Below are positions 2,730 through 64,000 of a stretch of DNA of 64,000 bases, in pieces. How positions within the stretch are numbered: position 1 is the stretch's first letter; each line of letters begins with the position of its first letter. Source of the stretch: a virus. Location of the stretch: IMG/VR virus record IMGVR_UViG_3300030419_003817, positions 1 to 64,000 of that record. One strand, 5' to 3'. The notes below the pieces were generated by a model. It had not been told where the DNA came from and ran no database searches. It saw nothing but the letters and a program-made list of their open reading frames with translations. The position numbers and the translations under genes are program-made.

Positions 2730-3860
2730 TTAAAAGATAGAAATATCTTCGTAGTGTGTATAGTTTCCATAGCCTGGATCAGCGGCGGTTATTCCCATAT
2801 ATTGGAAAGGAGAAGGAACTCCAGAACCAAGAGAAGGCCATTGTGATGATGGTGTAAAATTCAAATCTCCTGTTGCTCCGAGATATTCTGGATTATGTCC
2901 GCTTGCGCCTGGGGTATATCCCATTAATACAAGATAATCATCACCAGAACCAGAAGCATAATAATCACCTAGTCTGTTGCTATAAAAAGTAGAATTATAT
3001 ACTCTCGTTCCTTTTGCGGAACTTGATGGTGTTATTCCATAACCTTGATTTGCAGCCCAAACACAATTAGTTATAGTAGAAGCACCACTGCCTGTTATGG
3101 TTAGACCATCGCCTGTATTTCCATGAAAAATGCAGTTACCTAATGCAAGTCCTGCATTGTGTATTCTTGCCCCATCGTTTCCATTATTGTGAAAAACGCT
3201 ATTACTTATTCGAGCGGACAATCCAAGATTTGCACCATATTCTTCATTTGAATCAAAACAACATTCATGGATTTGAGCAAAAAATGTTGACGTTGCTTCA
3301 AGTCCAGACTCTCCATTATGATCGAACCTACATCGATGAAAGTTCCAATAGTTAGCGTTGCCATTTGTCTGAACCCCAGAATCTGTAAAATTAGTAAATC
3401 TCATATTCATAAATGACATATTGTGCATGTTTGCAACAGAGGCTTCTATTCCATGTTCAGCACCAGTTGTTCCAGTAGCATTACCATCAAGAATCAAATT
3501 TGCAAATTGTAAATAATCAATTGAACTATGATTTAATGTAATCATTGGACTTACATCATCCCCAGTCCATTTCAAAGTTTGACGAGTACCATCTACTAAA
3601 CCATTAGTGGGATTTGCCCCAGTTATTAGTGCTTCTATGGTACTTGTATGAGTTGATGCTATTGTTTCGGAAACCTCTTCAGTTGTCAATATTCTTATTT
3701 GATCACCATCATTAACTGTGCCATCAGCAATTTTTGAAAACGCATGTGCTAAAGTTTTCCAAGGGGAACCATAACTACCATCATCTGAGTCATCACCAGA
3801 ATCATAGTTGCAATAATATAATACTTGATCACTTGTGTCACCTAACTTTTCAACAGACAT
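2730..3860 (-). CDS. Right-handed beta-helix (pectate-lyase-like) protein, probably virion-associated
   Basis: N-terminal GDDSDDGSYGSPWKTLAHA (DUF1565-like) followed by repeated xCxFxxNxxxG beta-helix rungs. Confidence 0.75.
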   Translation of the reverse strand: MSVEKLGDTSDQVLYYCNYDSGDDSDDGSYGSPWKTLAHAFSKIADGTVNDGDQIRILTTEEVSETIASTHTSTIEALITGANPTNGLVDGTRQTLKWTGDDVSPMITLNHSSIDYLQFANLILDGNATGTTGAEHGIEASVANMHNMSFMNMRFTNFTDSGVQTNGNANYWNFHRCRFDHNGESGLEATSTFFAQIHECCFDSNEEYGANLGLSARISNSVFHNNGNDGARIHNAGLALGNCIFHGNTGDGLTITGSGASTITNCVWAANQGYGITPSSSAKGTRVYNSTFYSNRLGDYYASGSGDDYLVLMGYTPGASGHNPEYLGATGDLNFTPSSQWPSLGSGVPSPFQYMGITAADPGYGNYTHYEDISIF

Positions 3861-3872
3861 TTATTTCTCCTA

Positions 3873-5222
3873 CTAACCTCTTCTTATAATGTTAAGACAC
3901 AATGTACATGCTGTAAGACCAGAAACCGAATCAACATGAAATTCTAAAATATCACCCGCAGCAAAAGTTGTCTTTGTCCAGTTCACAGTTCCATCTCTCG
4001 CTGATGTTTGATTTGATAAAGATGGCAAACTAGATCCAGCAACACTTGTGAGGTTAGGCCACTGAGCATGTCCACCAGAATTTATATCAAATTGAATGCT
4101 ACCTTGCGATGGTGAATAGACTGTCCATGAATCAACTGAACATTTATAGGGTATTACTCTTATTCCCTTGTTTCCTGTTGTAAGGAAATTTTGATTTCCT
4201 GTTCTTAAAGAAATTCCTATAGTATCTTTTTGTGTTCCATCTAAAGTTGTTCCATCTGGAAACTCTATATAACTTCCAACATTGACGTTACCACCGAATG
4301 TTGCACCACCCTCTGCGGAAATACCACCATGAAAAAGAACTGTGCCAGTACCGTGAGTACCAGTTCCTTCAATTCGCATTCTCTTTGTACCATCAGTAGC
4401 GAAGTCTATTCCTACATCGTTGTCGGTATCAAAATATGGTGTGTCTTCCTGAAATTGTCCTATACCAATATCAAGAGCATGGTAATTATTATCTTGCGAG
4501 AGTCTAATTAATGGGTTGTCTGTTTCAGTCGCATTGTCTGTATCTGCAAGAATATAAAGTGCAACATCTCCTGCACTTCTAATTTGAACATCTCCACCGA
4601 ATGTTGCTCCGCGATCCGAGACAGACCCGAATGTTGCACCCCCTACAATAACCTGCGTTGGTGTCACATCAACCATCACATTTCCTGATTGTTGCAACTC
4701 TAATCCATCACTACCAGCACCATGTTTGTCGTTTACAAATTTAATTTGGGTGTCAGCATCACCAGCACTTCTTAATGCACTACCACCACCCGTTCCAAAA
4801 TCAATATTGGCTGCGAACATATCAATCGAAGATGAACCAGAACCCGCACCGTTGAACACAATCTTTTCTGTATCTCCACCAATCTTAACTTCGCCGTCTT
4901 CTGGTAATAGAAGATTACCACCCAGATTCAAGTCCCCTGACATTGTTATTCCGCCAGTAATTCCAAGAGTGCTACCAGAAAAATAAAGATTGTCGCTTGC
5001 ACTAAAACCACCATTGAACATGAAGTTCAATTGTCCGTCTTGTCCTGCGGGTTGTTCAGCAGAGGGACCAGCAAAGAGAGTAACGGTATTCCCACTTTCA
5101 TTGCCAACAAACACTCTTTGGTCAGCAATATTGATAGCAAGTTCACCGGCGGTAAGTCCTGTTGGAACAGAACCTACGGTTTCACTTCTTTTAATTTTAA
5201 TTAATGTGTCGCCAGTTGTCAT
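3873..5222 (-). CDS. Tail-fibre-like structural protein
   Basis: N-terminal IKIKRS...PTGLTAGELAIN.ADQRVFVG typical of phage fibre N-termini; Gly/Thr-rich; GATFG repeats; FATDGTKRMRI and IEFPDGT fibre motifs. Confidence 0.7.
   Translation of the reverse strand: MTTGDTLIKIKRSETVGSVPTGLTAGELAINIADQRVFVGNESGNTVTLFAGPSAEQPAGQDGQLNFMFNGGFSASDNLYFSGSTLGITGGITMSGDLNLGGNLLLPEDGEVKIGGDTEKIVFNGAGSGSSSIDMFAANIDFGTGGGSALRSAGDADTQIKFVNDKHGAGSDGLELQQSGNVMVDVTPTQVIVGGATFGSVSDRGATFGGDVQIRSAGDVALYILADTDNATETDNPLIRLSQDNNYHALDIGIGQFQEDTPYFDTDNDVGIDFATDGTKRMRIEGTGTHGTGTVLFHGGISAEGGATFGGNVNVGSYIEFPDGTTLDGTQKDTIGISLRTGNQNFLTTGNKGIRVIPYKCSVDSWTVYSPSQGSIQFDINSGGHAQWPNLTSVAGSSLPSLSNQTSARDGTVNWTKTTFAAGDILEFHVDSVSGLTACTLCLNIIRRG
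4291..4640 (-). repeat. Three near-identical 14-17 nt repeats encoding GATFG within the fibre gene
   Basis: ccgaatgttgc(a/t)cc at 4291-4307, 4594-4610 and 4627-4640. Confidence 0.6.
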
Positions 5223-5231
5223 ATCTTATCC

Positions 5232-5459
5232 CTACTTCAAAATCAAAGTAACAGAGTTTGTGTCTTGTTTCTTAAGTGCCAATTTATTATACTTTGTTAT
5301 GATGATGGACTTGGTTGTGGTGCTTTGTTTCTTTACAATTATCCCATCCTTAATCTTAACAATTTTGTTTTTTCTTTCACCCTCAATCAAAATCTTATTA
5401 AAATCATTATTTTTTGTTACTTTATTTTCTCTCTGTTCTTCTATAATAAGTTTTCTCAT
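5232..5459 (-). CDS. Small basic hypothetical protein
   Basis: 75 aa ORF, ATGA-coupled to the upstream gene, fills the gap. Confidence 0.55.
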   Translation of the reverse strand: MRKLIIEEQRENKVTKNNDFNKILIEGERKNKIVKIKDGIIVKKQSTTTKSIIITKYNKLALKKQDTNSVTLILK

Positions 5460-5923
5460 TTAGTAACTTCTCCATCGACATTGAACCTGCCCTGAAGAAT
5501 TCTAGTAATATTTTCTGTGGTAGAACCTGCTGTCCCTGTAGAAAGTTCTATGTCATAGACATGACTTCCTATTGGTAAGTCTTTAGTTGTGTATGAAGAA
5601 ACCTCAAAGAAGATACCACCAGTAACAGTTCCCGCAGTTCCTGTGTTCAACTTGATACCACCAGAACCACCAATTCCGTATGTTCCTCCGTTTGTAAGAC
5701 CTACAGGAACAGAGGTGAATTCACCAGTTACTCCACCTCCTGTAACACCGGCGGTTGTTAATTCCAATATTTTCTTTGTTGCCGTTTTACTACGGCGAAC
5801 CTGCATCCTTGCATCATTATAAACCGAAAGGTCAATAGATGCTCCAGTGCCTGTTTGATAATTCAGATAGAGACTAAAATTAGACCCTTGTTCTGTGTCT
5901 ATGTCGTAATTTCCTGCGGCCAA
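5456..5923 (-). CDS. Phage structural/fibre-adaptor-like protein
   Basis: TTG start with GAGGAG RBS; pattern YDI..EQGS.F...ARMQVR...YDIEL...RILQGRF.V..EVT common in phage tail adaptor proteins. Confidence 0.65.
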   Translation of the reverse strand: MAAGNYDIDTEQGSNFSLYLNYQTGTGASIDLSVYNDARMQVRRSKTATKKILELTTAGVTGGGVTGEFTSVPVGLTNGGTYGIGGSGGIKLNTGTAGTVTGGIFFEVSSYTTKDLPIGSHVYDIELSTGTAGSTTENITRILQGRFNVDGEVTK

Positions 5924-5963
5924 AACAATTCTCCTCTTTTATAGAACTACACTTATATGTATT

Positions 5964-7230: not shown

Positions 7231-8082
7231 TTATTCCTCTACAGAAAGAACTGCTGATTTACTAGTCGCCCAATCTCTATTCTTTCTTAATTCTAGATTT
7301 TGTTCCCACACTGCTTTAAGAACTTTGGGGTCGAGTCCACATTGTTCCATAGTCGTGATTAATGCATTTGTATCTTTGGGGAAGCATGTTCCACCAAAAC
7401 CATAATCCCCATCTGGTCCTGGCACATTCCAATGAGAGTCTGAAATTCTATAATCAGCAATGACTGCTTCGCATACAGTTTTATAATCTGTACCAAACTT
7501 TTCAGATAGCAACTTCATTTCGTTGAAGAACATTACCTTTGTTGCTAGAAAACAATTAGCATAATATTTCACAGACTCTGATTCATTTGAAGTCATTGTG
7601 TACACAGGTATACAAGGGAAACATTCTTGGTATAACTCTCGAACCTTTCCAAGAGAGATAAGATTTCTTCCACCAATCACTGTCCTGTCTGCGTTTACAA
7701 AGTCTTCCTCTGCATTTGCGGCAGTAAGAAACTCTGGATTATGCACTATATCCAACCATGAAAATTTATCCTGTAACATTTCTGTAGTTCCGATTGGAAC
7801 AGTTGACTTAACAATGAAGACAGGAAAATCTCCATCAAACTCATCTGGGTCTAATGAAGAGAAAAAGTTTTCAATGATAGAAAGATTACACTCTCCGCCA
7901 TTTTCATTTACCATAGGTGTTGGTAAACAAACAAAAACAAATTCTGTGTTAAGAGTTTCGTTTAGTGTGTGTGTACTGCGTTCTCTATCAACATCGTACA
8001 CACGAACATCTGCAAAATCACCAAATCCTGTTGCGACTGCATTCCCAACAAACCCATTACCAATAACGCCAATACTTCTCAT
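7231..8082 (-). CDS. UDP-glucose/GDP-mannose dehydrogenase family (short form)
   Basis: GNGFVG Rossmann motif, CLPTP, KSTVPIGT, NPEFL, catalytic GFGGTCFPKD. Confidence 0.93.
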   Translation of the reverse strand: MRSIGVIGNGFVGNAVATGFGDFADVRVYDVDRERSTHTLNETLNTEFVFVCLPTPMVNENGGECNLSIIENFFSSLDPDEFDGDFPVFIVKSTVPIGTTEMLQDKFSWLDIVHNPEFLTAANAEEDFVNADRTVIGGRNLISLGKVRELYQECFPCIPVYTMTSNESESVKYYANCFLATKVMFFNEMKLLSEKFGTDYKTVCEAVIADYRISDSHWNVPGPDGDYGFGGTCFPKDTNALITTMEQCGLDPKVLKAVWEQNLELRKNRDWATSKSAVLSVEE

Positions 8083-8101
8083 GATATAATCACTCCGTAA
8101 T

Positions 8102-9091
8102 TTATTTCCAAAAACTGTAGATTCCTTTGTCTACCTCATATGTATCAAATCTTTGTTGAACTCTTTCTGGTTGTTCTTTTGCCCACTCCCACATTTCAAT
8201 GAGGCCATCTTCTAAATTCATCGTCTCTGTATAGTCTAATACCTCCACAGACTTTTGATGTGTCGACCAAGCATGTTTAACTTCGTGTCTTTCCTCAAGA
8301 TGTTTAATTTCACCACCACCCATAACACCAATCAAAATATTTGCGGCATCAATAATTGAGTGTTCGTTTATTCCACCAAGATTTATAATTTCCTTTGAAG
8401 CACGACTGTCTGTTGCCGCTTTCCAGAATGGTTCAAGGCAATCATCAATATAACTAAATGCCCTTGTTTGACTTCCATCTCCATATATTGTGATAGGATT
8501 ACCGTTTAGGTGTTGGTACATCCAAATACCAAGTACATTTCGATATTTGTCCCAGATGTTTTGCTTTTTGCCATAAACATTGTGTGGCCTAATGATACAC
8601 CAATCCAACCCATGTTGCTCTCCCGCAATCTGAATGTCCTTTTCACATGCCGCCTTTGCGACACCATATGAGTCAATTGGGTTGCAGTTAAGTTCTTCCG
8701 CAAACGGGGGATTGTTTTCCCCATAAACTGCCATACTTGAAGTGAACACCAATCTCTTCACATCGTGGTTGATGCAATTGTTTACAATGTTTGCTGTCGC
8801 AACTAGATTGTTTGTATAGTTGAATGTTCGAATGAACGGACTCAACCCCTCTGCGGCATATGCGGCGAAGTGATAAACATAATCAATGTCGTGTTTGGAG
8901 AAAACTTCATTTAGTTCTTTTCCCTCTACTTTAATCGGATAAAAGATTACATCCTCGTGTATGTTTTCAACATAACCACCACTTAAATCGTCTACACCTA
9001 TTACCGTTGCATCTGGTTGATTTTCAACAATCCAGTCTGCTAAACGAGAACCGAGTAAACCTGCCACACCTGTAATTAAAATATTCATCAA
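8102..9091 (-). CDS. NAD-dependent nucleotide-sugar epimerase/dehydratase (extended SDR)
   Basis: ITGVAGLLG, SSMAVYG, YGVAK (YxxxK), RPHNVYG, GDGSQTRAF. Confidence 0.93.
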   Translation of the reverse strand: MMNILITGVAGLLGSRLADWIVENQPDATVIGVDDLSGGYVENIHEDVIFYPIKVEGKELNEVFSKHDIDYVYHFAAYAAEGLSPFIRTFNYTNNLVATANIVNNCINHDVKRLVFTSSMAVYGENNPPFAEELNCNPIDSYGVAKAACEKDIQIAGEQHGLDWCIIRPHNVYGKKQNIWDKYRNVLGIWMYQHLNGNPITIYGDGSQTRAFSYIDDCLEPFWKAATDSRASKEIINLGGINEHSIIDAANILIGVMGGGEIKHLEERHEVKHAWSTHQKSVEVLDYTETMNLEDGLIEMWEWAKEQPERVQQRFDTYEVDKGIYSFWK

Positions 9092-9747
9092 TAAGTGACC
9101 TTTTTCTTCTTATGCCTTATTTCAACTATATGTTCTTTATATGGTTTTATTTTATTATATGTAGTATCAGTTTTCCAACAAGCATAATTAAAACTTAATT
9201 GGTCACGATAACTATATTCATGAACCATTGACCACCACACATCATTTAACTTTTGTATTTTGTCTGTGTTCTTTCTTACTATTAAGTGACATGCTGACAA
9301 TCCATTCTTTTCTGGATATCCATCTTCTTGAATGTGTTTCATTTCGGCATCTACAATTTCTGGTTTTTCATATTTAAGAACATCTCTTATTTCTTTTGCT
9401 TCGTCATAAAGACATGAACGATATGGATTGTTATGCAGTGCAATATCTTTATCTTGTAAGAACTTTTCGATGTAAAATTCTGGTGATTTGTTTATAAACA
9501 TATTAGAATCAAAGTATATGGTGTAATCATAATCTGGAAGAACTATATGAGAATTGATTTTTGGATATCTAGAAGTCTTTCTTTCGTTCTCTACTATTTT
9601 GGGCAACTCTTTCATCTTCCATACGGAACTTTCAAAGGGGTTGTCAGTAAACATAAAAACATCAGCATCGCCCAAATATGAAGCATCATCTGGTTCTAAA
9701 GGTCTATCATAACCGCCTACATTTACAGAATATAATGCAATTTTCAT
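9088..9747 (-). CDS. DUF616 (TOD1/MUCI70-like) glycosyltransferase
   Basis: GGYD, MFTD, SRYPKI, IYFDSN, R.CLYDEA, RDQLSFNY; start at MKIAL overlaps the upstream stop. Confidence 0.8.
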   Translation of the reverse strand: MKIALYSVNVGGYDRPLEPDDASYLGDADVFMFTDNPFESSVWKMKELPKIVENERKTSRYPKINSHIVLPDYDYTIYFDSNMFINKSPEFYIEKFLQDKDIALHNNPYRSCLYDEAKEIRDVLKYEKPEIVDAEMKHIQEDGYPEKNGLSACHLIVRKNTDKIQKLNDVWWSMVHEYSYRDQLSFNYACWKTDTTYNKIKPYKEHIVEIRHKKKKVTY

Positions 9748-10436
9748 CAATACACCCTTTCCCAATCAAACCGTAAAAACTTATTTGACCAGTTGCCTGT
9801 TCTTTTCTTTTCTTCGAACAGTCTTGTGTTAACTTCTCTTCTGCTTCTGTCTATTGTTGGGGTTTCTCCTGTTGAGTCAATTACCATTTCAATGTCATAA
9901 CATTCCTTCACACCAACAACACCTCTTGCTCTCCAGAAAAATGCAGGGTCGTTTTGTCCGTAGTTTCCACAGAAGTCTTCGTCCCACCCCCCAATTTTCC
10001 AAAAATCTTTTACACGAATCATAAATTGGCCAGGTGCAATTTTATTTGGATTGCTTATTTTTGTTCCGTTGTGTCTGTAGAATTTAAAACATTCACCTGT
10101 CCTGTCTGTAAGTTCTATCATCTTTTTAACAGATTCTTCTGGTAACAAATGGTCCATGTCATGCTTAAACATCCAATCTGTTCCACACACCGTTGCACCC
10201 AAATTCACGGCGCCTGGTATATTACAATAAATGTCTTCCATTATTTTATAAACCACCAAATTGATATCTGGCGTGCCATCGATATAGTCTTTTGCTGATT
10301 GAGATGAACCATCATCTATAACCACAAACTGAATCTTCTCTTTAACTTCATTGCTGTATGACTGCCATAAGTCAATTTGTTTTTGTAGCATATCGCATTG
10401 GTTATAATAAGTTGTAATGAAGGACAAACTAGTCAT
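9747..10436 (-). CDS. GT-A fold glycosyltransferase (GT2/GT7C-like)
   Basis: VVIDDGS, HDMDH (DxD), FWKIGGWDEDF.GNYG. Confidence 0.85.
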   Translation of the reverse strand: MTSLSFITTYYNQCDMLQKQIDLWQSYSNEVKEKIQFVVIDDGSSQSAKDYIDGTPDINLVVYKIMEDIYCNIPGAVNLGATVCGTDWMFKHDMDHLLPEESVKKMIELTDRTGECFKFYRHNGTKISNPNKIAPGQFMIRVKDFWKIGGWDEDFCGNYGQNDPAFFWRARGVVGVKECYDIEMVIDSTGETPTIDRSRREVNTRLFEEKKRTGNWSNKFLRFDWERVY

Positions 10437-11476
10437 ACTAAAACTCTTAAGTCTGGACAAAAATAAATTGCTTTGTCTTTATACTTTTCAAAATTATTAA
10501 CTCTTACACCATTTTCATTTACTATGTCATCATCGGTGTCTACTATAAACACCTCATCTTTTTCATAATTTTCTAACACCAGATTAAGATATTCTTTGCA
10601 TCGATTAAAAGAACCATAGACAATTAAATCAAAGTATCTTTCTCTTATTTTATCTTCTATATTTTCCCTGTCAACAGAAATATCTGGTATGTTTCCAGAA
10701 TATGTCATCCCGCCGCCACGCAGTTCGGACACCTTTACTTTCTTTTTTACTAAACCATTCTTATCTTTTTCGGAAAGGTTTGGGTCATTGGGGTCAATCC
10801 AAACTCGGTCATCGTTTGTTCCCCTGTAGGTATATCCTTCTTTGATACCCTCATATACCCACCAAAGTTTGTTTGAGTCTATTACTCCTTCTCCAACCAC
10901 ATTTCTAAATCCCTGAAACAAGTAGTCATTTAATTGGTCTGCTCTATCTCCAAGTGTAATGTATAATACATTTTTAACATCGGTCTTACCTGTAACCTCT
11001 AATGCAAACCTTGCCATGGCATCGGTTGTTAAATTTTCTTTGCAATACTCCAACAACCACTTGCAATCTTTTTCATATTCTTCTTTTGAAAAATTCTTCT
11101 GATAATATTTATCTCGTAATTCTTGGTATTTATTTTTTGGGTGGTGCATCAAACAATGCTCTGGACATTTATCAATATCCATGAACAGAGGAACACAACC
11201 ATTCATAATTATTTCTTGATTTCTACCAGTGTCCCATTGACCCTTTTTCCAATTAAAACCAAAATAACTTTCCTGATAGTCTCTGTAATAATCATCAGCA
11301 GTTTTAAAAATATATGTTGACTCATCGCCTGGAATTACCGTTCCAAATAATTTTTTCTTTTCGGGAATTTTGTCCAAAACTAGTCTAGGAGGAACTACGA
11401 TATTCAAAGGGTAGACAACGCCTTTTCCTACTTTTCTTTCTATGTCATCAATTCTTTCTTTTATGATTTCATTCAT
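10433..11476 (-). CDS. Putative glycosyltransferase (GT-B-like, uncharacterised)
   Basis: YQESYFG...KKGQWDTGRNQEIIMNGCVPLF resembles the R..E....GC.P motif of GT-B/exostosin-like C-termini; cluster context. Confidence 0.55.
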   Translation of the reverse strand: MNEIIKERIDDIERKVGKGVVYPLNIVVPPRLVLDKIPEKKKLFGTVIPGDESTYIFKTADDYYRDYQESYFGFNWKKGQWDTGRNQEIIMNGCVPLFMDIDKCPEHCLMHHPKNKYQELRDKYYQKNFSKEEYEKDCKWLLEYCKENLTTDAMARFALEVTGKTDVKNVLYITLGDRADQLNDYLFQGFRNVVGEGVIDSNKLWWVYEGIKEGYTYRGTNDDRVWIDPNDPNLSEKDKNGLVKKKVKVSELRGGGMTYSGNIPDISVDRENIEDKIRERYFDLIVYGSFNRCKEYLNLVLENYEKDEVFIVDTDDDIVNENGVRVNNFEKYKDKAIYFCPDLRVLV

Positions 11477-12297
11477 GACCAACTTCTCCATCCTTCATAA
11501 TCTGTTTTCCCTAAATTTTTATTTCTAGAACCCTTGTTTGGTTTCCAAGGACCATAAACACAGACATCGCTTGCTTCACTTAATACAGATGCCCACCAAG
11601 AAAATGTACTATCTTTAAAAATTATCTTATCAAACGAACGAATAAAATTAAAATGGTCTATGAATGTATCCTTTAATGCTGATTCGTTTTTTATCATTCC
11701 TGCATTTTCTATGTGGCATATTGGGTCATATACTGACAATCCTTCTATAAGTTCATTCACATATTCAATTGCTTCTTTTTCGGGAACTAGGTTATGTCGT
11801 GGTTTAAATTTCCTATGAACATTAAAAGATTCTAACTCCTCATAGAGTTTAGAAACATCTTCTATGTTATGTGTCTCCCATTTATCAGCATCTGTTATTA
11901 TGTGGAGTCTGTCAAAATCAAAAGTATCAATGACACCCATATATTTTTTTGAGTCAACATGATTCATGTGGTGTGTTTGTTGAGCGATTCTGTTACCCAA
12001 TCTCAGATGTAATATCAAATCTTTGGTGTTGGTTTTCTCAACCTTTGGAAACCAAGACCTGACATCATCAATTCTGTCTTTGTATAAAGTATAATCTTCA
12101 AAATTATTTGAGATACCAAACACATTACGACTTTCTCCAACACTTCCGTCTTTTATGTTTTTAGGAATATTCAATTCGGGAATGGCATCATGTGATAGTT
12201 CATAACCATTTCTTTCTGCCAATATCCTAGAACCAGAATATTGAAACAGGTGATTACCAAACCCATCACTATATCGAACAGAAACAACTTTTTTCAT
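11473..12297 (-). CDS. GT11 alpha-1,2-fucosyltransferase-like
   Basis: GFGNHLFQY, LHLRLGN, IITD, STFSWWAS. Confidence 0.85.
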   Translation of the reverse strand: MKKVVSVRYSDGFGNHLFQYSGSRILAERNGYELSHDAIPELNIPKNIKDGSVGESRNVFGISNNFEDYTLYKDRIDDVRSWFPKVEKTNTKDLILHLRLGNRIAQQTHHMNHVDSKKYMGVIDTFDFDRLHIITDADKWETHNIEDVSKLYEELESFNVHRKFKPRHNLVPEKEAIEYVNELIEGLSVYDPICHIENAGMIKNESALKDTFIDHFNFIRSFDKIIFKDSTFSWWASVLSEASDVCVYGPWKPNKGSRNKNLGKTDYEGWRSWS

Positions 12298-13842: not shown

Positions 13843-13844
13843 TT

Positions 13845-19228: not shown

Positions 19229-19231
19229 GAA

Positions 19232-26077: not shown

Positions 26078-26086
26078 AATAAAACC

Positions 26087-43546: not shown

Positions 43547-43573
43547 TAAATGCACCTCCAATACTATGTATGT

Positions 43574-43604: not shown

Positions 43605-43633
43605 CAAACTTCTACAGGGGGAAAGAAGTTTAA

Positions 43634-54738: not shown

Positions 54739-55614
54739 CTAAACAGTATTACCACGAATATCTATACCAGGACCTCCTGTTACTCCCGCAGTATAACCAA
54801 ACACGAATAAATCATGAGCAAAGTCTGTGGTGTATCCGCCTATTCCGACCCCTGCACCAGTAGGTCCTGCATCTGGACCTGTAGCAGAAACATCCACACG
54901 AGAGAATGCGCCCGTTGCTCCAGTTGCTCCATGAATACCATGGTCAGAATCAAGGTCATCATAATTGAAGAATGTAGTTTGAACTGTTCGAACAACGCCT
55001 TGTTCTCGAATGGCGCCATAGACATAAGACTTTACCGTAAAGTTTAAAGTGAATGTTATACTTCTTCGGGTGTCAAAATCACCCTCATAGTCCTCTTCGG
55101 TTGTGATGTTGTTTAATACAACGGGCACATCAATTTTTTGTGCGATGTCAGTTTCTAAATTAAGTGTGACATTAAATTCTGGTGTAAAGTATGGAACAAT
55201 CTGCTCCATTATTTGTAAACCATCATCCATATTACGAGTCATGATATAAAGGTTAAATTCAAAATTATAAGGGACTTCCGAAAAAGTTCTTTTTACTTTG
55301 TAATTGTTGTCACTGTTTGCAACAAACCTTTTTTGCATTGTGTTTCTTTTTCGTGCGTTGTCGTATGTTATGTTGGAAATATCAAATCCCATTCTTGGTA
55401 AAGCATACCGTGCCTTTATGTCGTCACTTAGTGAACTTGCTTGCATTGCTCTCACTAAGAATTTTTCTTTTGGTCCATACGATAACGGAATTCTAATCTC
55501 TTCTTTTGTCGAACCATCTGAATTCGAGCGAATAATTCTAACATCATTAAACAACGAACCAAAGGCAACAACCAACTTTCGAATAGAACTGTGATAGAAA
55601 GGACTTCCAAACAT
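54739..55614 (-). CDS. g15: Tail sheath stabiliser/terminator gp15 with Gly/Thr-rich C-terminal extension
   Basis: FYH..IRK.VVAFG.LFN, PLSYGPKEKF, LPRM.F, QI.PYF.P, YEGDF. Confidence 0.93.
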   Translation of the reverse strand: MFGSPFYHSSIRKLVVAFGSLFNDVRIIRSNSDGSTKEEIRIPLSYGPKEKFLVRAMQASSLSDDIKARYALPRMGFDISNITYDNARKRNTMQKRFVANSDNNYKVKRTFSEVPYNFEFNLYIMTRNMDDGLQIMEQIVPYFTPEFNVTLNLETDIAQKIDVPVVLNNITTEEDYEGDFDTRRSITFTLNFTVKSYVYGAIREQGVVRTVQTTFFNYDDLDSDHGIHGATGATGAFSRVDVSATGPDAGPTGAGVGIGGYTTDFAHDLFVFGYTAGVTGGPGIDIRGNTV

Positions 55615-56507
55615 TATGAGTATCCACCTTCAGAGAATGGGTCTGTGTCAGTGAAGTCAAATATACTGCTTGCATCTGCCTCGAATTCAATAAAGGCGTT
55701 GTCTCCTGCATCACCAGATATTCCTTGTGGTATTATAATTGTAGTGGACGATGATGTAGTAATATCATAATCTGCTGTTGATGTAGAACCTACTACCTTT
55801 CCAGATGTGTCGAAAGTTCCAGAAACAGGGGAAATTGTAAGTTCCTTTGTATCGCCTGTCCATCCCGTTGCTGTTGCAATTGCTGTGGCATCTGCTAAAT
55901 TAGTTCCCTGATAAACTGTTTCGCCGATAAAGTAGTCTGATGCACTGCTGTTTTGCGTTCCTAGTGTAAGAAGAACGGCAAACTGATTCGTATTGTCTTC
56001 AAGAACATCAACATCGTCATAACCCGTATTGATTTCCTCGTGACTGTAAACGAAGAGTTCACATGAGAGTTTATATGTGTATAATTTACCCAATTGATAA
56101 AATGGGTTTTCGTGTTCTACAAATTTAATTTCAAACATGCCCTTTGAGAGTGGGAAATATATTAAATCTCCCTCTCTGGGTCTTGTGATGTTTTCATCAT
56201 GTTCAAAGACCTTTTCAAATCTCTTTTTAGCAACAACCAAATCTATACTATCTCGAATCTCAAGGCCAAACTTTGATATGAAATCACCCTCGCCTTGAAA
56301 TCCATCTACCGTATCAATATACATTTCGATTGTATTTGCTTCAGTAAATTTAGAAAGAACATCTTCCCCAAAAAGTGTGTCTCTATCAACAGTTACACGG
56401 GGGATATAAACCATATCTTGGCCGTGAATCTGAATAGTTTCAACCGTCAAGTCCTCTATCAGTGCCTGCTCTGATGCTTTATGTTTGAAGTAAGAATTCT
56501 TTGCCAT
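55614..56507 (-). CDS. g14: Neck protein gp14
   Basis: G.D..YIPR, FGED..SKF, SKFG, RPREGDLIYFP, PFYQLGK. Confidence 0.94.
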   Translation of the reverse strand: MAKNSYFKHKASEQALIEDLTVETIQIHGQDMVYIPRVTVDRDTLFGEDVLSKFTEANTIEMYIDTVDGFQGEGDFISKFGLEIRDSIDLVVAKKRFEKVFEHDENITRPREGDLIYFPLSKGMFEIKFVEHENPFYQLGKLYTYKLSCELFVYSHEEINTGYDDVDVLEDNTNQFAVLLTLGTQNSSASDYFIGETVYQGTNLADATAIATATGWTGDTKELTISPVSGTFDTSGKVVGSTSTADYDITTSSSTTIIIPQGISGDAGDNAFIEFEADASSIFDFTDTDPFSEGGYS

Positions 56508-57381: not shown

Positions 57382-57476
57382 CTGTTATGCTCCTATTTCG
57401 TTTATGTTTCCTCTTATATGTATAACTTCTGGAGCATTTTCTAATTTTTGTGCCTTTTGGTTTTTGCTTTTTACCC

Positions 57477-57857: not shown

Positions 57858-57874
57858 AATCAAAACTCCATAAT

Positions 57875-59917
57875 TTATTTACCAGTATATACATTACTAT
57901 ATGGACTACTTACTGATGTTCCTTTAGATTTTTCTGACTGAACTGCTTTATATGAGACTGATGATGATAGGTTTTTCTTAGATACTATCTTACTTCCACC
58001 CTTTCCTCCAGTGTCTGCCAATTCTTTAAAATCTGTTATAGAATTAATATTCGCCTCTGCTTCTTGTTGTGACGCTTTCTTTTGTAGATAATACTCAGAG
58101 ACATCCTTATACAAGTCAGTAATATCAATTGGTCTTAGTTCTCTCGAAGTAGTGCCGTCTAAATCAACTAATACAACTCCTTGGGTTAGTCCCGACTCTA
58201 CCGCGGCCGCATATGAACCAAGAGTTTCATAAGTCTTTGGTGTGAGTTTGAAGTTAAAGATATCAAAATATCCTCCAGACACTCCCGCACCACTTACACC
58301 GGCCGCTCCTGAACCTACTCGTAAAGCAGTGTTACCCATTAAGTGTATTAGGTTATTTGGATTTGCTGTAGAACCACTTACACCAAGAGAAAAGTCCTGA
58401 TTCATTGCGTCATTTGATGCTGAGATTGATATCAATCTACTATTTGTAATACCAATTATATCTTCAAACGGAATTGATGAAATTGCCCATGTTGCAAAAC
58501 TTCCAGTAAGTCCTTGAGTTCCACCTGCACCTGCACCCGTTACACCCCCAGTTCCTCCCGTACCAGAAAATCCATATAAAAATCCTCTATCCGCACTGAA
58601 TCCTTCCATTGCACCAGTGACACCGATATTTGAAAGATGAAGAATATTTCCTGTATCACCCGCAGTTGAACCACTAAGTCCACCTAAAACCAAAGAGGTT
58701 GCTTTTGCTGATACAATATTAAATCCTCTTTCAACAAATTTATTACAACCACAAATTCCATGCATAGGAACTAATAGTTTGGTATATACCTGGTCTCCAG
58801 TTCCAACTTCAGCAGGAGTTGAAATTCCTGCCCCGGTCGCCATCGTTCCACCCGATGGTCCATCAATTATTCTTTGCCAATCTGTACCCGTAATATCACC
58901 AGCAACATAATGAAAATCAGACATATATCCCTTGAATGGTTTTGTTCCATCTGATTCTGCTCCAATAGAGAAGGAGTTTGTATCACTTGTCCAGTTATTT
59001 GAGTTTGTAACTTCGGTTTGGTCTTTCAATACTCCGTCAATGAATATTCTTAATTGGTCGTTGGAGCGTTCTACCTGACAATGATGCCATCCCACTGTAA
59101 TACCAGTAGGAAGTTCTGCCTCAACAGATTTATTGAACGAGGCGCCTGTATTTCCTAAAGATGCTTTAAACTGAAACTTATTTGTTCCTGCGTCATAGTC
59201 CATATAGAAAGGACCACCAGTCGTACCCGCAGGATTTTTCTTTCCAAAAAGAACAGCACCATCTGGTGGGTGGACACCATCTAAATGAAACCAAAATTGA
59301 ATCTTTACTGCTTGATGGCCATCAAGAGTTATTCCTTGAGTAAATGGATGGTCCGTTGTACTTCCAGAAATTTCAAGATATGTACCAGTTCCTCCGGCCG
59401 CATTATCCGCACTTCCTCCAAAATACCCACAAGTCCATGCGTATTTTATAGGTTCTTGGTTTACTCCAACAGTTTTTGCGTGAACAACTTTTCCGTAGTA
59501 TCCACTCGAACCTGTTCTTCCCCTTGTTTCGATTTTATGAATACTTTGTTCGACTTCCTCATTTGCAATAAACTCACCACAACCACCATCGTCCAAATAC
59601 AAATACTGGTTTGAAAATGTTTTAAATGCTGGTAAAATGGGTGTAAGAGATGCTTCATTTTCAGGGAACGAATTATTATGATTTGTTCTATCTCTGTTTA
59701 TTAAAGGTCTATGAACATTTTCAAGAGTTGGTGGTTCTATACCAACAGGAATTGTTAAAACTTCATGTGCGTCTTGTAAACCAGATAATTCTTTAACTTT
59801 TGAAATATCTGTACCAACATCAATACCCGTAGAAGATTTATCAAGAACAGCCAATACGATATTCTGTTCGTTTAATATTACTATTTGTTCAGATAATTTA
59901 TCATTAATTGATGGCAT
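57875..59917 (-). CDS. Virion protein with LamG/concanavalin-A-like domain, Gly/Thr-rich
   Basis: IQFWF...WHH..V.R....LRIFIDG...IGA....FKGYMSDF LamG pattern. Confidence 0.75.
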   Translation of the reverse strand: MPSINDKLSEQIVILNEQNIVLAVLDKSSTGIDVGTDISKVKELSGLQDAHEVLTIPVGIEPPTLENVHRPLINRDRTNHNNSFPENEASLTPILPAFKTFSNQYLYLDDGGCGEFIANEEVEQSIHKIETRGRTGSSGYYGKVVHAKTVGVNQEPIKYAWTCGYFGGSADNAAGGTGTYLEISGSTTDHPFTQGITLDGHQAVKIQFWFHLDGVHPPDGAVLFGKKNPAGTTGGPFYMDYDAGTNKFQFKASLGNTGASFNKSVEAELPTGITVGWHHCQVERSNDQLRIFIDGVLKDQTEVTNSNNWTSDTNSFSIGAESDGTKPFKGYMSDFHYVAGDITGTDWQRIIDGPSGGTMATGAGISTPAEVGTGDQVYTKLLVPMHGICGCNKFVERGFNIVSAKATSLVLGGLSGSTAGDTGNILHLSNIGVTGAMEGFSADRGFLYGFSGTGGTGGVTGAGAGGTQGLTGSFATWAISSIPFEDIIGITNSRLISISASNDAMNQDFSLGVSGSTANPNNLIHLMGNTALRVGSGAAGVSGAGVSGGYFDIFNFKLTPKTYETLGSYAAAVESGLTQGVVLVDLDGTTSRELRPIDITDLYKDVSEYYLQKKASQQEAEANINSITDFKELADTGGKGGSKIVSKKNLSSSVSYKAVQSEKSKGTSVSSPYSNVYTGK

Positions 59918-59934: not shown

Positions 59935-62424
59935 TTATGGGTCGATACCACTGTCTGCTTCGTATGGTTCTCCCCCCGACCAAGAGAGTATGGTTGGACC
60001 GTATACTGTAATTGCAGTCCCTTCGTTTCCGTAGTTTGCTTGAGTGTCACCATACAAATTTGAGTTGAGTTGAACTGTAGGTCCATGCATAAGTATGGCA
60101 TTAGAGTTTCTTATGTACGACCCTGCCGCACTGTCTTGTCCTTCTTGTCCGTTACTTTTATAAACTTTCCATACCCATGCAGTGGCACTGTCAGCATCTA
60201 TTATACCACCATAATAATTTACGAGGGGATAGTGGTTAAAGGTATTATATAAAATAATCGCACCTTTAAGATGTGTCATTCCATGCGAATTGGCGATACC
60301 ATCACCAGCGTTATTATTTTGAATTCCAGAACCACTTATTAGAATATCTTTTATATAACTGAATCCTTGGTCGTGAGTATGTATTGCGAGGCCGCCGGGT
60401 TTTATTATTGCATCAAATTCACTGTCTAACTTTCCATTTCTTCGATTATACAAAGTTTGCATCCATGACTCTTGATAGGTGTTATATTTAGACACAAAAT
60501 CTGCGCCACTGTTATAAATCGTACCCAATCTATGGAATAGATTTCTTTTGAACCTAACACTACCCGAAGTCATTTCAACCGCAGTACCTGAAGTTTCACT
60601 TGTATTGTATTGTTCTCCATATAACATGGCAGAATCATTCATCATTGTTTCTGAATTTTCGTTTTGGAGTCTGTTATTCCCAAGTATTATTGAGCGATTT
60701 ATTGCTAATGAAGAATTACTAGTTGCTAAGTTAACCTTGCAGTTTGTTACTGTTGTATTATTTAATAAAAGTTTACCGCCGGTATCCAACCTCCATGCAC
60801 CATTAGAAGTTGAAAAACATGTGCCCATACTTTTAACAGTTCCCCCTGCAATATGAAGACTTTCATTTGTAAAATCTGTAAATGCTATATTAGGACCAAG
60901 ATTGTAGATGGTTGAATTTTCCCACACAACAAGTCCACCAAGAGAGACTCTATTGTTGGTTTTAGGATTTTTATATCCATAATCCTCCCCATTTGCAATC
61001 TTAGAATCATGTGTTGGTCTGAAGACAATATTATCTAATCTATGGAGTCCTGAATTTTTTGAAATTTGCATTCCAAAACCGCCTGTACTTTCCTCTCGAA
61101 GAGACCCGGTCTGTACAGGTGATACTTCAATATTTGGGTCAAACAAAAATACAGTTCGGAGTCCAGTTACGGTGAACTTACCGTGTGTTCTTCGTTCTCT
61201 TGCTCTTGTCGTTGGTGTAAAGAGTGCGCCGCCAGAATCTTCATCTTCCCAACCCACTGCTGGTCGAATAGTATTATCGGGTGGTTCTGGCATATATCCA
61301 ATCTTATCGTGTTGTTGCGTTGACGAGGGGGCATTGTGAAGATATGAATATTCGTTTCCATTTCCTGCTCCACTTTCTGTTACCTCTGAAGAGTTTTGAG
61401 AACATGGAGTTGGTCTATCATAATCATAGAGACCTGCTACTGGTGTATCGTCATAGTATACTCCTTCACCAGCAGTGTTTCGACCAGCACTATTGACTGC
61501 TTTATCGTAAGGATTTCTATTTGTGTTTTTATTTTCAAGTGTGATGCGACCAAATGTGTTACCAGTTGCTCCATCTAGACCTGGAACATTAGAACCAACA
61601 CCAATAACTTTATGACATCCTATTGCAAAAAATCTTTGTAACCAATTTTCTGGCTCTGCAAATCTTGGATATCTTAAATTGTGTAGTCTGTTTATTGGTC
61701 TACTTTGACTTGGTCTGTTCCATGTGTTGTTCTCTCCGGCCTTTGCAACTGAAGTATCTGTCATAGTTAATGCAGGATATGCTCCAGAATTACCTTCTCC
61801 GAAACTAGTGTCTGCATCGATATTAAAATCTGATTCATATGCACCAGAAAATCCTCTAACCAAAACATAATCATCAACTCCTAATGCACCAGTTGAACCT
61901 GCAACAGTACAAACCATTGCAAATCTTTCACCATATGCCTCTCCACCCGCAACACCATCGGCGTATAAAATATCCTCTACAGTAGTTCCAAGTCGATTTG
62001 ATGTTCTTCTCACACCAACAAACCCAGTGACAAGACCACCCTCAGTTGCACTTCCAAATTCTACAGTATCCCCCGTATAACCCGTTGTATCAACATAATC
62101 ATCTACACTTTCAAGGGTCATTTCTAGGGGAGTGGCGCCAACAATTGCAATTCTATTACCGCAAGCATGGTTTACAACAATTTGTTTTTCTATAGTATAC
62201 ACACCGGCCGCACAAGAGATTGTAACAATTGCATTTTCTGTGATGTAAATATCAGAGAGATAACTGAGTGCTTTGTGTACTGTTTTCCACGGAGAATCAA
62301 CAGACAAACCTGAATTTCGGTCATCATCCCCTTGCGGAGAAACATACAAAGTAAAGTCTTCGTCAATTGTTCTAACGAAACCTTTTACTGAGTTTAAATT
62401 GATTGCACTATATTCTATTGCCAT
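59935..62424 (-). CDS. Tail fibre/tailspike-like protein with C-terminal beta-helix
   Basis: LYVSPQGDD..SG....PWKT..KAL..L...I.....TI..AAGVY N-terminus; beta-helix-like C-terminal half. Confidence 0.7.
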   Translation of the reverse strand: MAIEYSAINLNSVKGFVRTIDEDFTLYVSPQGDDDRNSGLSVDSPWKTVHKALSYLSDIYITENAIVTISCAAGVYTIEKQIVVNHACGNRIAIVGATPLEMTLESVDDYVDTTGYTGDTVEFGSATEGGLVTGFVGVRRTSNRLGTTVEDILYADGVAGGEAYGERFAMVCTVAGSTGALGVDDYVLVRGFSGAYESDFNIDADTSFGEGNSGAYPALTMTDTSVAKAGENNTWNRPSQSRPINRLHNLRYPRFAEPENWLQRFFAIGCHKVIGVGSNVPGLDGATGNTFGRITLENKNTNRNPYDKAVNSAGRNTAGEGVYYDDTPVAGLYDYDRPTPCSQNSSEVTESGAGNGNEYSYLHNAPSSTQQHDKIGYMPEPPDNTIRPAVGWEDEDSGGALFTPTTRARERRTHGKFTVTGLRTVFLFDPNIEVSPVQTGSLREESTGGFGMQISKNSGLHRLDNIVFRPTHDSKIANGEDYGYKNPKTNNRVSLGGLVVWENSTIYNLGPNIAFTDFTNESLHIAGGTVKSMGTCFSTSNGAWRLDTGGKLLLNNTTVTNCKVNLATSNSSLAINRSIILGNNRLQNENSETMMNDSAMLYGEQYNTSETSGTAVEMTSGSVRFKRNLFHRLGTIYNSGADFVSKYNTYQESWMQTLYNRRNGKLDSEFDAIIKPGGLAIHTHDQGFSYIKDILISGSGIQNNNAGDGIANSHGMTHLKGAIILYNTFNHYPLVNYYGGIIDADSATAWVWKVYKSNGQEGQDSAAGSYIRNSNAILMHGPTVQLNSNLYGDTQANYGNEGTAITVYGPTILSWSGGEPYEADSGIDP

Positions 62425-62440
62425 TTGCGTCCTCTTGGAA

Positions 62441-62448
62441 TATTTATA
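62441..62448 (-). promoter_or_regulatory. T4 late promoter
   Basis: Exact TATAAATA 16 nt upstream of the ATG at 62424. Confidence 0.8.
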
Positions 62449-62781
62449 TTATGGTCTTGATGGCCATACAACATTTTCTGGTTTATTAAAGGTCTTTGTT
62501 ATATCTCGTACCTGTTGACGATATGCTCTCCATGCTGATTGGTCTCTAGCAGAGAGATTGTTGTCTGGAAGTTGTGTCCAATCTGAGTTTTTGAGAATTA
62601 ACCTAACTTGTGATTTAATTGTTGCCCATTCATCATCTTCTATAACTTCAACCTCTACAAGTCCTTGTTTTTGGAGATTTAAAAATTCTCTATAGTGTCT
62701 ATTTTCTGTATCGGTAGAAAATGTCATACCACTAGATTTACATGTGATACTTCCGTCTGAAAATTGTTTATATTTTTTCAT
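62449..62781 (-). CDS. Phage tail-fibre assembly chaperone
   Basis: NRHYREF, L..SDWTQLPD, WRAYRQ..RDI, WP.RP. Confidence 0.85.
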   Translation of the reverse strand: MKKYKQFSDGSITCKSSGMTFSTDTENRHYREFLNLQKQGLVEVEVIEDDEWATIKSQVRLILKNSDWTQLPDNNLSARDQSAWRAYRQQVRDITKTFNKPENVVWPSRP

Positions 62782-62791
62782 ATCTTATCTC

Positions 62792-64000
62792 CTATCCTAT
62801 CTCTGCATCTGCTTCAAAGTGATAAACAATTAAAGTGTCACCTTGTGTATAATTGCCAAGAGACACAGACGACTGAATAGTACCAAAACCAGATTCACTA
62901 CGATTACCTGCTGATGCAGTTACGAATTGACTTTGATAGTTTTCAGCATGTTGTACATAGATTCCACCCTCTTCACCATCCTTACCATACAAAGTAACTG
63001 TGGGTGCTACTCTTTTTCTTACTTCAAAAAGAGTTGGTTGGTGACATGTGTTATTTATTTGTGGGTCGGTAGCACCACGAAGACCACCACCATAACCTGT
63101 TGTGCTAGTTCCCGGCGAAACATCAACATCATAAGTTTTTTCATAATATCTTTGACACATTGCGAGTTCTACTTGTGTGTGTCGTTTTTCGAATGGAGAT
63201 GAGTCGTCACCTATTTCAAGTTGAATTTGTGCAAAGTCGATAGCACCAGTCAGTCCTGTCAACCCCAACATATCTGTAAGTTTTCCGTTTGATTTATTTT
63301 CTTCTGGTCCTGATGGTCCATGTGCTAACATGAAGATTGCATGTACCGTGTCAACAGTTCCAAGAGTACAACCCTCGAATGATGGGAATTTAAATTTTCT
63401 TTTAAATTTTTGCCAAGAAGGAGTAATTTCAATATCATCTCCAAGAATTCTAATTCGTTCTCTAAATCCATTACCAAGATTTGCAGTTGCACCTGTTGTC
63501 TCTGGAACAACATGCTCGTCTCCCACAGAACCATTTTGGTCTGGGTCGTATGCAACTCTACAACCAATTGTTGGATTTGTGATGTTGCCATGAGATTTTG
63601 CAAGAAAGGTTAGGTAACAAGTCGAGTCACTAAACTCAACTGTATTTGTATCAACTGCTTGACCAAAAATCAAGAAACCGTTTCCCATATCCATTGAGCA
63701 ACCAGTCACACCATCAATAGAATCACCATCAGAGGCGCCTACCGTAACTCTACAAAAATAATCACTAGGTTTTACACCCGATACCTCTGCTTGTGGATAT
63801 CCTAAAGTGAATCCTTCTCTAGTAACTTTAACTCTTGGCACAGTTGAATCCGTTCCAACTTCAAATGAACCATTACCCACAGTAAATCCAAGTCCAGTGG
63901 TAGCACGAACATAAAAACGGTCAGCACCATATGTTTCGCTAAATGCTTCAGAGAAACCACCAGATGTTGGTCCTGCTGTAGTTTTAAGTCCTCTTTGGAA
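62792..64000 (-). CDS. Tail-fibre-associated protein, 5' end outside the window
   Basis: Frame stays open to 64000 (FQRG...YGADRF); C-terminal QIQLEIG...PFE.R....ELAMCQRYYEK motif of phage fibre proteins. Confidence 0.78.
   Translation of the reverse strand, partial: FQRGLKTTAGPTSGGFSEAFSETYGADRFYVRATTGLGFTVGNGSFEVGTDSTVPRVKVTREGFTLGYPQAEVSGVKPSDYFCRVTVGASDGDSIDGVTGCSMDMGNGFLIFGQAVDTNTVEFSDSTCYLTFLAKSHGNITNPTIGCRVAYDPDQNGSVGDEHVVPETTGATANLGNGFRERIRILGDDIEITPSWQKFKRKFKFPSFEGCTLGTVDTVHAIFMLAHGPSGPEENKSNGKLTDMLGLTGLTGAIDFAQIQLEIGDDSSPFEKRHTQVELAMCQRYYEKTYDVDVSPGTSTTGYGGGLRGATDPQINNTCHQPTLFEVRKRVAPTVTLYGKDGEEGGIYVQHAENYQSQFVTASAGNRSESGFGTIQSSVSLGNYTQGDTLIVYHFEADAEIG

Follow-up and report, generated by a model that had tools for sequence, protein, structure and literature searches.

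Does this phage glycosylate its own particle? We analyzed the first 64 kb (the window) of a viral contig of 90,940 bp, IMG/VR record IMGVR_UViG_3300030419_003817, which, judging from its genes, is from a marine T4-like myovirus in a group near the Kyanoviridae. An earlier interpretation of the window (the sequence-only reading) had proposed that a four-residue motif, G-x-T-G or G-x-T-A, is an acceptor sequon for O-glycosylation of the virion proteins, and that a dedicated cluster of sugar-related genes, or glycan island, makes the glycans. We found that the motif is far more common in the virion proteins than expected, and that across related phages this excess follows a single gene. The gene encodes a glycosyltransferase (GT) domain of family GT2 followed by tetratricopeptide repeats (TPRs), and we refer to the protein as GT2-TPR. 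Glycosylation of G-x-T-G sites in the virion by GT2-TPR is the best-supported explanation for these results and is probably correct.

Virion proteins are enriched in G-x-T-G

In the 29 open reading frames (ORFs) for virion proteins, G-[AVILSTYN]-T-[GA] occurs 50 times, vs. 9.8 times expected if each protein is shuffled. None of 500 shuffles reached 50 copies. To control for composition, we used these global shuffles as well as local ones (within 50, 20, or 10 residues); even with 10-residue windows, just 14.4 copies are expected. In the non-virion ORFs, there are 3 copies vs. 1.9 expected. The motif is enriched in the virion and scarce elsewhere, in keeping with the sequence-only reading, which had found it essentially absent from replication enzymes. 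Composition alone is ruled out as the source of the excess.

Because the set of residues in that pattern had been picked post hoc, we also scanned every pattern of the form a-x-b-c (about 8,000 gapped tripeptides). G-x-T-G ranked first (48 vs. 11.7 expected, z = 10.6), so the motif is not an after-the-fact definition. G-x-T-x-G ranked first among patterns of its shape, and the extended consensus is G-[A/I/V/L]-T-G-[A>S,G]. Collagen-like runs account for only 30 residues of the contig's proteome, too few for repeats to be the source of the excess here. We also considered a signal at the level of DNA. The coding frame has 50 copies of the pattern, whereas the other frames have 2-3 and the opposite strand has none, and the glycine codons at the motif follow the background, which rules this out. 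(The threonine codons show a mild preference for ACT, which is also present in phages without GT2-TPR.)

Every example of the motif that the sequence-only reading had quoted (from the capsid protein gp23, the sheath protein gp18, the neck proteins gp15 and gp14, the Laminin_G_3 or LamG protein, the 829-amino-acid and 430-amino-acid fibers, and the fiber cassette at 2730-5923) is present in the translated ORFs. Its list of carriers was somewhat too broad. The proteins responsible for the excess are LamG, gp15, gp18, the beta-helix protein, and the 430-amino-acid fiber (Table 1), while three other proteins, of 449 amino acids (3 copies of G-x-T-[GA] vs. 1.55 expected), 829 amino acids, and 155 amino acids, are not significant individually. 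Also, GPTG108 of gp23 and GTTG260 of UvsW are kept in all of the relatives, so these two copies lie outside the phenomenon.

Judging from alignments and from a structural model of the 155-amino-acid protein (p155), the sites are in insertions, C-terminal tails, and a loop of low model confidence rather than in conserved cores, which agrees with the claim that they would be in exposed loops and often in insertions. For example, the insertion in gp23 that bears site 273 is absent from all 8 orthologues from phages without the GT, and so is the 7-residue insertion in gp18 that forms site 419. The other sites in gp18 (144-171) align with residues 124-146 or so of T4 gp18. These fall within residues 98-188, which we take to be the outermost domain of the sheath.

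The excess follows the GT2-TPR gene

We compared 20 genomes: 12 contigs that encode a homologue of GT2-TPR (carriers) and 8 genomes that do not (non-carriers). The non-carriers are two near-complete T4-like phages from IMG/VR, HTVC008M, Mosig, Melnitz, S-SCSM1, S-SSM7, and T4. The raw counts for contigs L060, L071/G006, and G001 are high because of collagen-like repeats, so we masked such runs before computing the ratio of observed to expected G-x-T-G. Ten of the carriers had ratios of 3.4, 2.1, 3.1, 3.3, 3.2, 2.5, 2.3, 3.2, 2.4, and 2.7, and another, a jumbo phage, had a ratio of 2.5. The twelfth carrier is a fragment without virion genes, and its ratio was 1.06. The ratios for the non-carriers were 1.3, 0.9, 0.8, 1.2, 0.9, 0.6, 1.0, and 1.5, which is significantly less (P = 6e-5, Mann-Whitney test). 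In other words, the excess is present in 11 of 12 carriers and in 0 of 8 non-carriers; these represent about two independent lineages, and there is one counter-example (the phage Tunturi_5, considered below). When all patterns were ranked, the motif came first or second for five carriers, and it ranked first in the jumbo phage.

The excess is also specific to certain residues. Among G-x-X-G patterns in the carriers, threonine is found 2.9 times as often as expected (345 vs. 119) and serine 1.5 times as often, while the values for other residues range from 0.6 to 1.4. In the non-carriers, the value for threonine is 1.0 and no residue is raised. So the motif is over-represented beyond composition and is specific for a hydroxyl residue, as in a sequon.

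The sequence-only reading had suggested checking relatives that lack the island. The non-carriers do lack the excess, but it is GT2-TPR, and not the possession of an island, that the excess follows. S-SCSM1 and S-SSM7 have many sugar genes, without GT2-TPR, and show no excess, so a sugar island is not a sufficient condition. Conversely, the jumbo phage has the excess although its GT2-TPR gene stands outside of any island.

Among orthologues of the virion ORFs, the observed and expected counts were 71 vs. 15.9 in carriers and 37 vs. 32.1 in non-carriers. The portal, tube, terminase, gp44, and gp46 have no motif in any of the genomes compared. The sheath orthologues from 9 T4-like carriers have 2-7 copies of G-x-T-[GA] each, in about 26 different alignment columns, while 7 of the 8 sheaths from non-carriers have none. 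This scatter across columns fits a history in which sites were gained repeatedly, more than the inheritance of a single site. gp15 and gp14 resemble the sheath, with one shared column each: column 280 of the gp15 alignment is G-x-T-G in 6 carriers and in 0 of 8 non-carriers, and in gp14, residue 205 is the position of a G-x-T-G in five other carriers. The cluster of sites in the tail of gp15 is retained in the closest relatives (contigs L004 and L005). In the jumbo lineage, 80 sheaths have 422 sites, vs. 48 expected, and the gene is present in all 7 near-complete genomes. A few jumbo sheaths have just 0-2 sites, and these are on short contigs.

Some related observations concern fibers and the counter-example. 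The T4-like contigs L060 and L071/G006, which lack GT2-TPR, bear long collagen-like Gly-X-Thr fibers (two ORFs of G006 have 57 and 27 copies of G-x-T-G), so such fibers do not require this enzyme. The relatives G004, G005, G001, and G003 encode giant fiber-like ORFs (1000-2000 amino acids, 5-13% cysteine) with repeats of G-[A/S]-C-C, which is possibly a disulfide-rich repeat module. G-[A/S]-C-C occurs 65 times in G004, vs. 10 times expected, and is not found in the window's contig. Tunturi_5 is a cultured phage of Tunturiibacter whose homologue of GT2-TPR is annotated as a beta-1,4-glycosyltransferase, and its G-x-S-G is mildly raised (61 vs. 40.5).

GT2-TPR resembles enzymes that glycosylate peptides and proteins

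GT2-TPR matches Glycos_transf_2 (PF00535) from Pfam across residues 7-98, with a score of 36.9 bits (the gathering threshold is 23.3 bits), and it has weak matches to TPR_14 and ANAPC3. In an alignment of 32 homologues, DTGS.D.T and D-A-D-D are invariant (D36-T37-G38-S39 and D90-A91-D92-D93). The Pfam score and the conserved acidic D-x-D motif place the protein in the GT2 family, which has the GT-A fold. Among proteins with solved structures (in PDB), the nearest by sequence is GmaR (E = 3e-10). We also modeled GT2-TPR with AlphaFold 2 (AF2), with a predicted local distance difference test (pLDDT) score of 91.7. The top matches for this model from Foldseek were to SunS/ThuS and spanned both domains (7msn_A, E = 6e-15, 403 columns, template modeling score 0.56; and 7msk_A, E = 2e-14). 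As modeled, GT2-TPR is SunS-like in its full-length layout without being a member of that family. The sequence-only reading had likened its architecture to that of peptide or protein GTs, and this was borne out both by the full-length match of the model to SunS/ThuS and by the sequence similarity to GmaR.

GT2-TPR belongs to a large family, with at least 6367 protein clusters in metagenomes, and we found no homologue in any cultured T4-like phage. Bacterial genomes and chromosomes (Streptomyces, Mycolicibacterium, and many others) encode homologues with 36-44% identity. At 27 of 80 bacterial loci, from several phyla, an ORF with at least 8 copies of G-x-T-G lies within 5 kb of the homologue; these include loci from Streptomyces, Mycolicibacterium, Acidovorax, Methylobacter, Pyrinomonadaceae, and Fimbriimonadaceae. 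About one third of the bacterial homologues adjoin collagen-like genes with (G-A/P-T)n repeats, and threonine is found at 51% of the Y positions in the collagen-like runs of the neighboring ORFs. Similarly, 19 of 47 T4-like viral loci have an ORF with at least 8 copies of G-x-T-G near the gene, vs. 2 of 80 control loci that were centered on the sheath.

The neighboring gene encodes p155, which is homologous to the 112-amino-acid gp061 of HTVC008M (hhalign 98.5%). Relative to gp061, p155 has about 40 extra residues of motif-bearing Gly/Thr-rich loops, which are modeled with low confidence. (The AF2 model as a whole has a pLDDT of 86.5, with the inserted loop at 48-71, and the Foldseek matches are 8hqz_Q and 7qg9_J.) Homologues of p155 are present in 9 of 11 contigs with GT2-TPR and in 0 of 8 others, and p155 is directly downstream of the GT at about 26 of 47 loci of the T4-like type. 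Of all the genes in the island, only GT2-TPR and p155 are common to the carriers and absent from the non-carriers. One G-x-T-G-G-I of p155 is in a strand that is modeled with confidence, and it is nearly invariant; this copy is probably structural.

The rest of the glycan island is variable

With the gene for GT2-TPR, the island spans 21 kb (5964-26812). The sequence-only reading had described a dedicated island with about 13 GT-like genes. The island is real, and nine of its ORFs have GT-family support; several more have no match to any family. Besides GT2-TPR, the GT ORFs are three from GT2 (one of these matches is weak), TOD1/MUCI70, FUT8-like, RXYLT1_C, GT47, and Nucleotid_trans. The sugar genes are two that are similar to UDP-glucose dehydrogenase, along with an epimerase, a PseB-like 4,6-dehydratase, a DegT aminotransferase, and two formyltransferases. 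The island also encodes a sulfotransferase, an FkbM methyltransferase, and a GlnII-like ligase. The two dehydrogenase-like proteins (UDP-glucose/GDP-mannose) are encoded at 7231-8082 and 17383-18492; the former is short, at 283 amino acids, and matches just part of the N-terminal domain and the central domain. The gene similar to GlnII-type glutamine synthetase (24225-25304; NCBIfam GlnII, E = 1e-105, below the equivalog cutoff) is within the run of GTs, and its product might either amidate a sugar acid or provide glutamine.

We saw no membrane-like segment in any of the 32 ORFs that lie between 5.4 and 31 kb, and searches of the island with Pfam and NCBIfam found no families of flippases, polymerases, ligases, or lipid-carrier transferases. 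This suits the stepwise glycosylation of a soluble acceptor in the cytoplasm.

Almost none of the island's genes are common to other contigs with GT2-TPR. For example, contig G005 has the same layout with other sugar genes (NeuB, UDP-GlcNAc 2-epimerase, and GT11), and it has a collagen-like fiber after p155. In the jumbo phage, GT2-TPR is solitary among replication genes. These layouts suggest that the enzyme is the constant part of the system and that the island is the variable part.

A proposed mechanism and its alternatives

We propose that GT2-TPR is a soluble cytoplasmic protein O-glycosyltransferase of the SunS / GmaR / SgtA type. It would put a priming sugar on the threonine, or less often the serine, of G-x-T-G-[A/G/S]. 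The acceptors would lie in exposed and flexible parts of the virion: the sheath domains, the tails of gp14 and gp15, the insertion in the capsid protein, the LamG protein, the fibers, and the loop of p155. The motif would be selected into exposed virion proteins and maintained through the turnover of sites. About 24 soluble enzymes from the island would make unusual nucleotide sugars and would extend and decorate the glycan, perhaps with an N-formylated amino-deoxy sugar, a uronic acid, sulfate, and methyl groups, and the sites would then carry a complex glycan rather than a single priming sugar. This part of the system is hypervariable from one phage to the next, and it might serve as a virion serotype. 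We infer the transfer itself, the identity of the sugars, and their extension by the island, as well as the biological role, which could be shielding, adhesion, or mimicry.

Several points weigh against this mechanism. All of the evidence (the excess, its restriction to the virion, its association with the gene, and the enzyme's fold and family relationships) is computational. The four-gene tree puts the T4-like carriers in a single grade alongside the non-carriers, so there are few independent contrasts, and one evolutionary event could be behind the whole link within the T4-like phages. This problem is eased, though not removed, by the turnover of sites and by the jumbo lineage. The soil jumbo phage Tunturi_5 encodes a 39%-identical homologue of GT2-TPR and has no excess (28 vs. 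41.5). As to the enzyme, its sequence similarity to GmaR is restricted to the first 96 residues, and it scores 27.6 bits against NCBIfam's model for SunS (TIGR04195), vs. a cutoff of 350, which excludes it from that family. The apparent exposure of the sites is judged from alignments and from the domain borders of T4 proteins. Finally, GT2-TPR is conserved without the island, so the island's products may have another destination.

The motif could instead be a structural or compositional habit of surface loops in certain lineages, such as a Gly-flanked turn or a module derived from collagen, that travels with GT2-TPR by ancestry while the enzyme and the island modify something else. The single grade of T4-like carriers, the homologue without an excess in Tunturi_5, and the nearly invariant G-x-T-G-G-I of p155 would all fit. 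But a habit of this kind would not account for the same excess in a very distant jumbo lineage that has the gene, for the turnover of sites between lineages within one protein, for the preference for threonine and then serine, or for the link between bacterial homologues and (G-x-T)n genes, and we consider it unlikely.

The other alternatives leave the motif aside and give the enzymes another target. The sugar islands of marine cyanomyoviruses (S-SCSM2R, S-SCSM1, and P-SSM2) are ordinarily read as "LPS / cell-wall" genes that modify the surface of the host (PMC12801897; LPS is lipopolysaccharide). In the same way, this island and GT2-TPR might remodel the host's envelope (LPS or capsule) during infection, for instance to block superinfection, and the gene content does resemble that of O-antigen clusters. 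We think that this is quite improbable, given that the island has no membrane segments and no Wzx, Wzy, ligase, or lipid-carrier transferase, that its sole conserved enzyme has the fold of a peptide or protein GT, that cyanophages with islands but without GT2-TPR show no excess, and that the motif would be left unexplained. Or the GTs might hypermodify the phage's DNA, as with the glucosylated hydroxymethylcytosine of T4 or the glycan-modified bases of other phages. Some viral GTs are known to act on DNA (cited in PMC12619734), and a dCMP deaminase, a dUTPase/dCTP-deaminase-like gene, and a weak match to DUF1599 are nearby. Against this, the substrate-binding TPR domain and the relationship to SunS and GmaR point to protein acceptors; the sulfo-, formyl-, and methyltransferases and the nine GT ORFs far exceed the known systems for DNA; and neither the motif nor the bacterial link to (G-x-T)n would be explained. 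Modification of DNA is the answer that we would least expect, and we give it very little credence.

If GT2-TPR does glycosylate the virion, then a broader scenario is plausible, which we offer tentatively. A large and abundant group of marine T4-like phages, along with an aquatic lineage of jumbo phages, may coat the whole particle (capsid, neck, sheath, and fibers) with strain-specific complex glycans, with one enzyme, GT2-TPR, reading G-x-T-G and with hypervariable islands setting the "serotype." This would account for the presence of hypervariable islands alongside one conserved enzyme. Virion glycosylation would be widespread, genetically encoded, and predictable from sequence in the ocean's T4-like and jumbo phages, instead of a curiosity of actinobacteriophages and giant viruses. 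It would add a hidden layer to the diversity of phage surfaces, with effects on host range, the stickiness of particles, decay, and grazing at sea. The "LPS / cell-wall" islands of at least some marine myoviruses would be reassigned from host remodeling to virion decoration. And the GT-A-TPR enzyme and a four-residue tag would be a portable pair for the glyco-engineering of proteins and phage particles.

Other features of the window

The classification of the contig and its core genes is based on tblastn to Pelagibacter phage HTVC008M, Pfam, the four-gene tree, and syntenic core genes. gp23 is 54% identical to capsid proteins of HTVC008M and of cyanomyoviruses. The T4-like core is present: gp3, gp13-gp23, gp5, gp6, gp25, gp43, gp44, gp45, gp46, and gp47, and also gp55, gp62, regA, UvsW, UvsY, and RNase H. 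Every gene is on the minus strand. The interval from regA (26829-27239) to gp43 (2-1783) encloses the 21-kb island, the small fiber cassette, and the dUTPase/dCTP-deaminase-like gene.

Table 1. Positions of the features discussed, with their motif sites (observed vs. expected counts) or supporting matches.
Feature	Position	Strand	Sites or evidence
376-amino-acid right-handed beta-helix protein (fiber tip or depolymerase-like)	2730..3860	-	Pfam Beta_helix, E = 3e-16; 4 motifs vs. 0.83
449-amino-acid fiber-like virion protein of the cassette	3873..5222	-	PHROG virion structural protein and long tail fiber distal subunit (N-terminus)
p155, Ig-like (immunoglobulin-like) adaptor (BppU-N / T5 p132 collar fold)	5456..5923	-	Inserted Gly/Thr-rich loop with GVTGGGVTGE
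GT2-TPR, candidate protein glycosyltransferase, 421 amino acids	5964..7229	-	N-terminal GT-A, C-terminal TPR array, Lys-rich tail
Glycan island, about 24 soluble ORFs	7231..26812	-	Pfam, NCBIfam
NAD-dependent sugar epimerase/dehydratase, among replication genes	27283..28212	-	Pfam Epimerase, E = 2e-52
Second scattered sugar epimerase/dehydratase	29868..30944	-	Pfam Epimerase, E = 1e-46
gp23, major capsid protein	43634..45109	-	GITG273 in STSGITGATSG; lineage-specific, within an insertion
gp18, tail sheath	50505..52499	-	GTTG144, GVTA157, GLTG171, GATG419; 4 vs. 0.8
gp15, neck/tail terminator	54739..55614	-	C-terminal tail: GATG229, GATG232, GPTG250, GYTA273, GVTG277; 5 vs. 0.34
gp14, neck protein	55614..56507	-	GWTG215
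680-amino-acid Laminin_G_3 (ConA-like; concanavalin A) virion protein	57875..59917	-	Pfam Laminin_G_3, E = 8e-13; 12 G-x-T-[GA] vs. 1.55
829-amino-acid fiber-like protein	59935..62424	-	3 sites vs. 1.45
430-amino-acid fiber-like protein	62792..64000 (to 64084 of contig)	-	4 sites vs. 1.07

Among the replication genes, a GroES-like Cpn10 gene (28573-28899) lies between gp44 and gp62. The genes for nucleotide metabolism include the dUTPase/dCTP-deaminase-like gene and the weak match to DUF1599, which is associated with nucleotide modification (1776-2652), as well as the dCMP deaminase (42026-42544). These suggest that nucleotide metabolism is altered, separately from the glycan system. An ORF of 534 amino acids (33837-35441) has just a weak match, in its C-terminal part, to the N6_N4 DNA methylase family, and the ORFs that flank it (32685-33794 and 35423-36187) have no family match.

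A box with the sequence ATACATA is found in the leaders of p155 (5924-5963), gp23 (43562-43633), and the gene at 57477-57863 (leader at 57382-57476). This phage may use it as a late-type promoter element; the box is too weak to indicate the timing of expression. There are no T4-type late promoters (TATAAATA) near GT2-TPR or p155, and the whole contig has four matches on the coding strand.

Comparison with known systems

Our searches of the literature found no description of a phage sequon of this kind. In mycobacteriophages, phage-encoded GTs decorate virion proteins (Freeman et al. 2023, as cited by PMC12619734 and PMC12801897). Those phages are siphoviruses with glycans on the C-termini of their capsid and tail-tube subunits, as summarized in PMC12619734, and the citing summaries report no dispersed sequon, GT2-TPR, or large nucleotide-sugar island. 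The islands of the cyanomyoviruses are closer in content, with many GTs and epimerases in hypervariable regions of T4-like marine phages. The difference is that S-SCSM1 and S-SSM7 have neither GT2-TPR nor an excess of the motif.

The enzyme itself has several bacterial counterparts. GmaR, from Listeria monocytogenes, is a cytoplasmic transferase with TPRs that adds O-linked N-acetylglucosamine (O-GlcNAc) to flagellin (PMC9638930, PMC3150276). As we propose for GT2-TPR, it glycosylates, in the cytoplasm, a structural protein that is later assembled outside of the cytoplasm. GmaR differs in that its similarity to GT2-TPR is confined to the nucleotide-binding part and in that GmaR is also an anti-repressor. 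We know of no G-x-T-G rule for flagellin. The best structural match over both domains is to the glycocin S/O-glycosyltransferases SunS, ThuS, and PalS (PDB 7msn and 7msk). With these enzymes, the acceptor residue is followed by Gly-Gly/Ser and is in a flexible loop, and ThuS also O-glycosylates serine (PMC6405829). Unlike the candidate acceptors of GT2-TPR, the substrates of these enzymes are small bacteriocin peptides, and the acceptor is mainly cysteine.

SgtA from Clostridioides difficile is also a GT-A and TPR enzyme, and it transfers O-GlcNAc onto the threonines, and also serines, of the Gly-Pro-Thr repeats of BclA3 (PMC7157674). Its gene is just upstream of bclA3, and its product is a priming sugar that is extended by other enzymes (PMC7157674). 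In Gly-Pro-Thr repeats, each threonine is in a G-x-T-G context. Compared by its described layout, SgtA shares with GT2-TPR a soluble GT-A domain followed by C-terminal TPRs, an acceptor threonine in G-x-T-G, and a gene that adjoins genes rich in G-x-T-G (here, p155 and the fiber cassette); and its use of serine matches the weaker excess for serine that we observed. Unlike in BclA3, the motifs here are mostly single and dispersed, in non-collagen virion proteins of a T4-like phage, and they are accompanied by a 21-kb island for elaboration. The sequence-only reading had taken G-x-T-G to be an acceptor sequon. Computation supports this, but the motif is better seen as a minimal Gly-X-Thr collagen triplet, because the enzyme's bacterial relatives are linked to such triplets and because SgtA glycosylates them.

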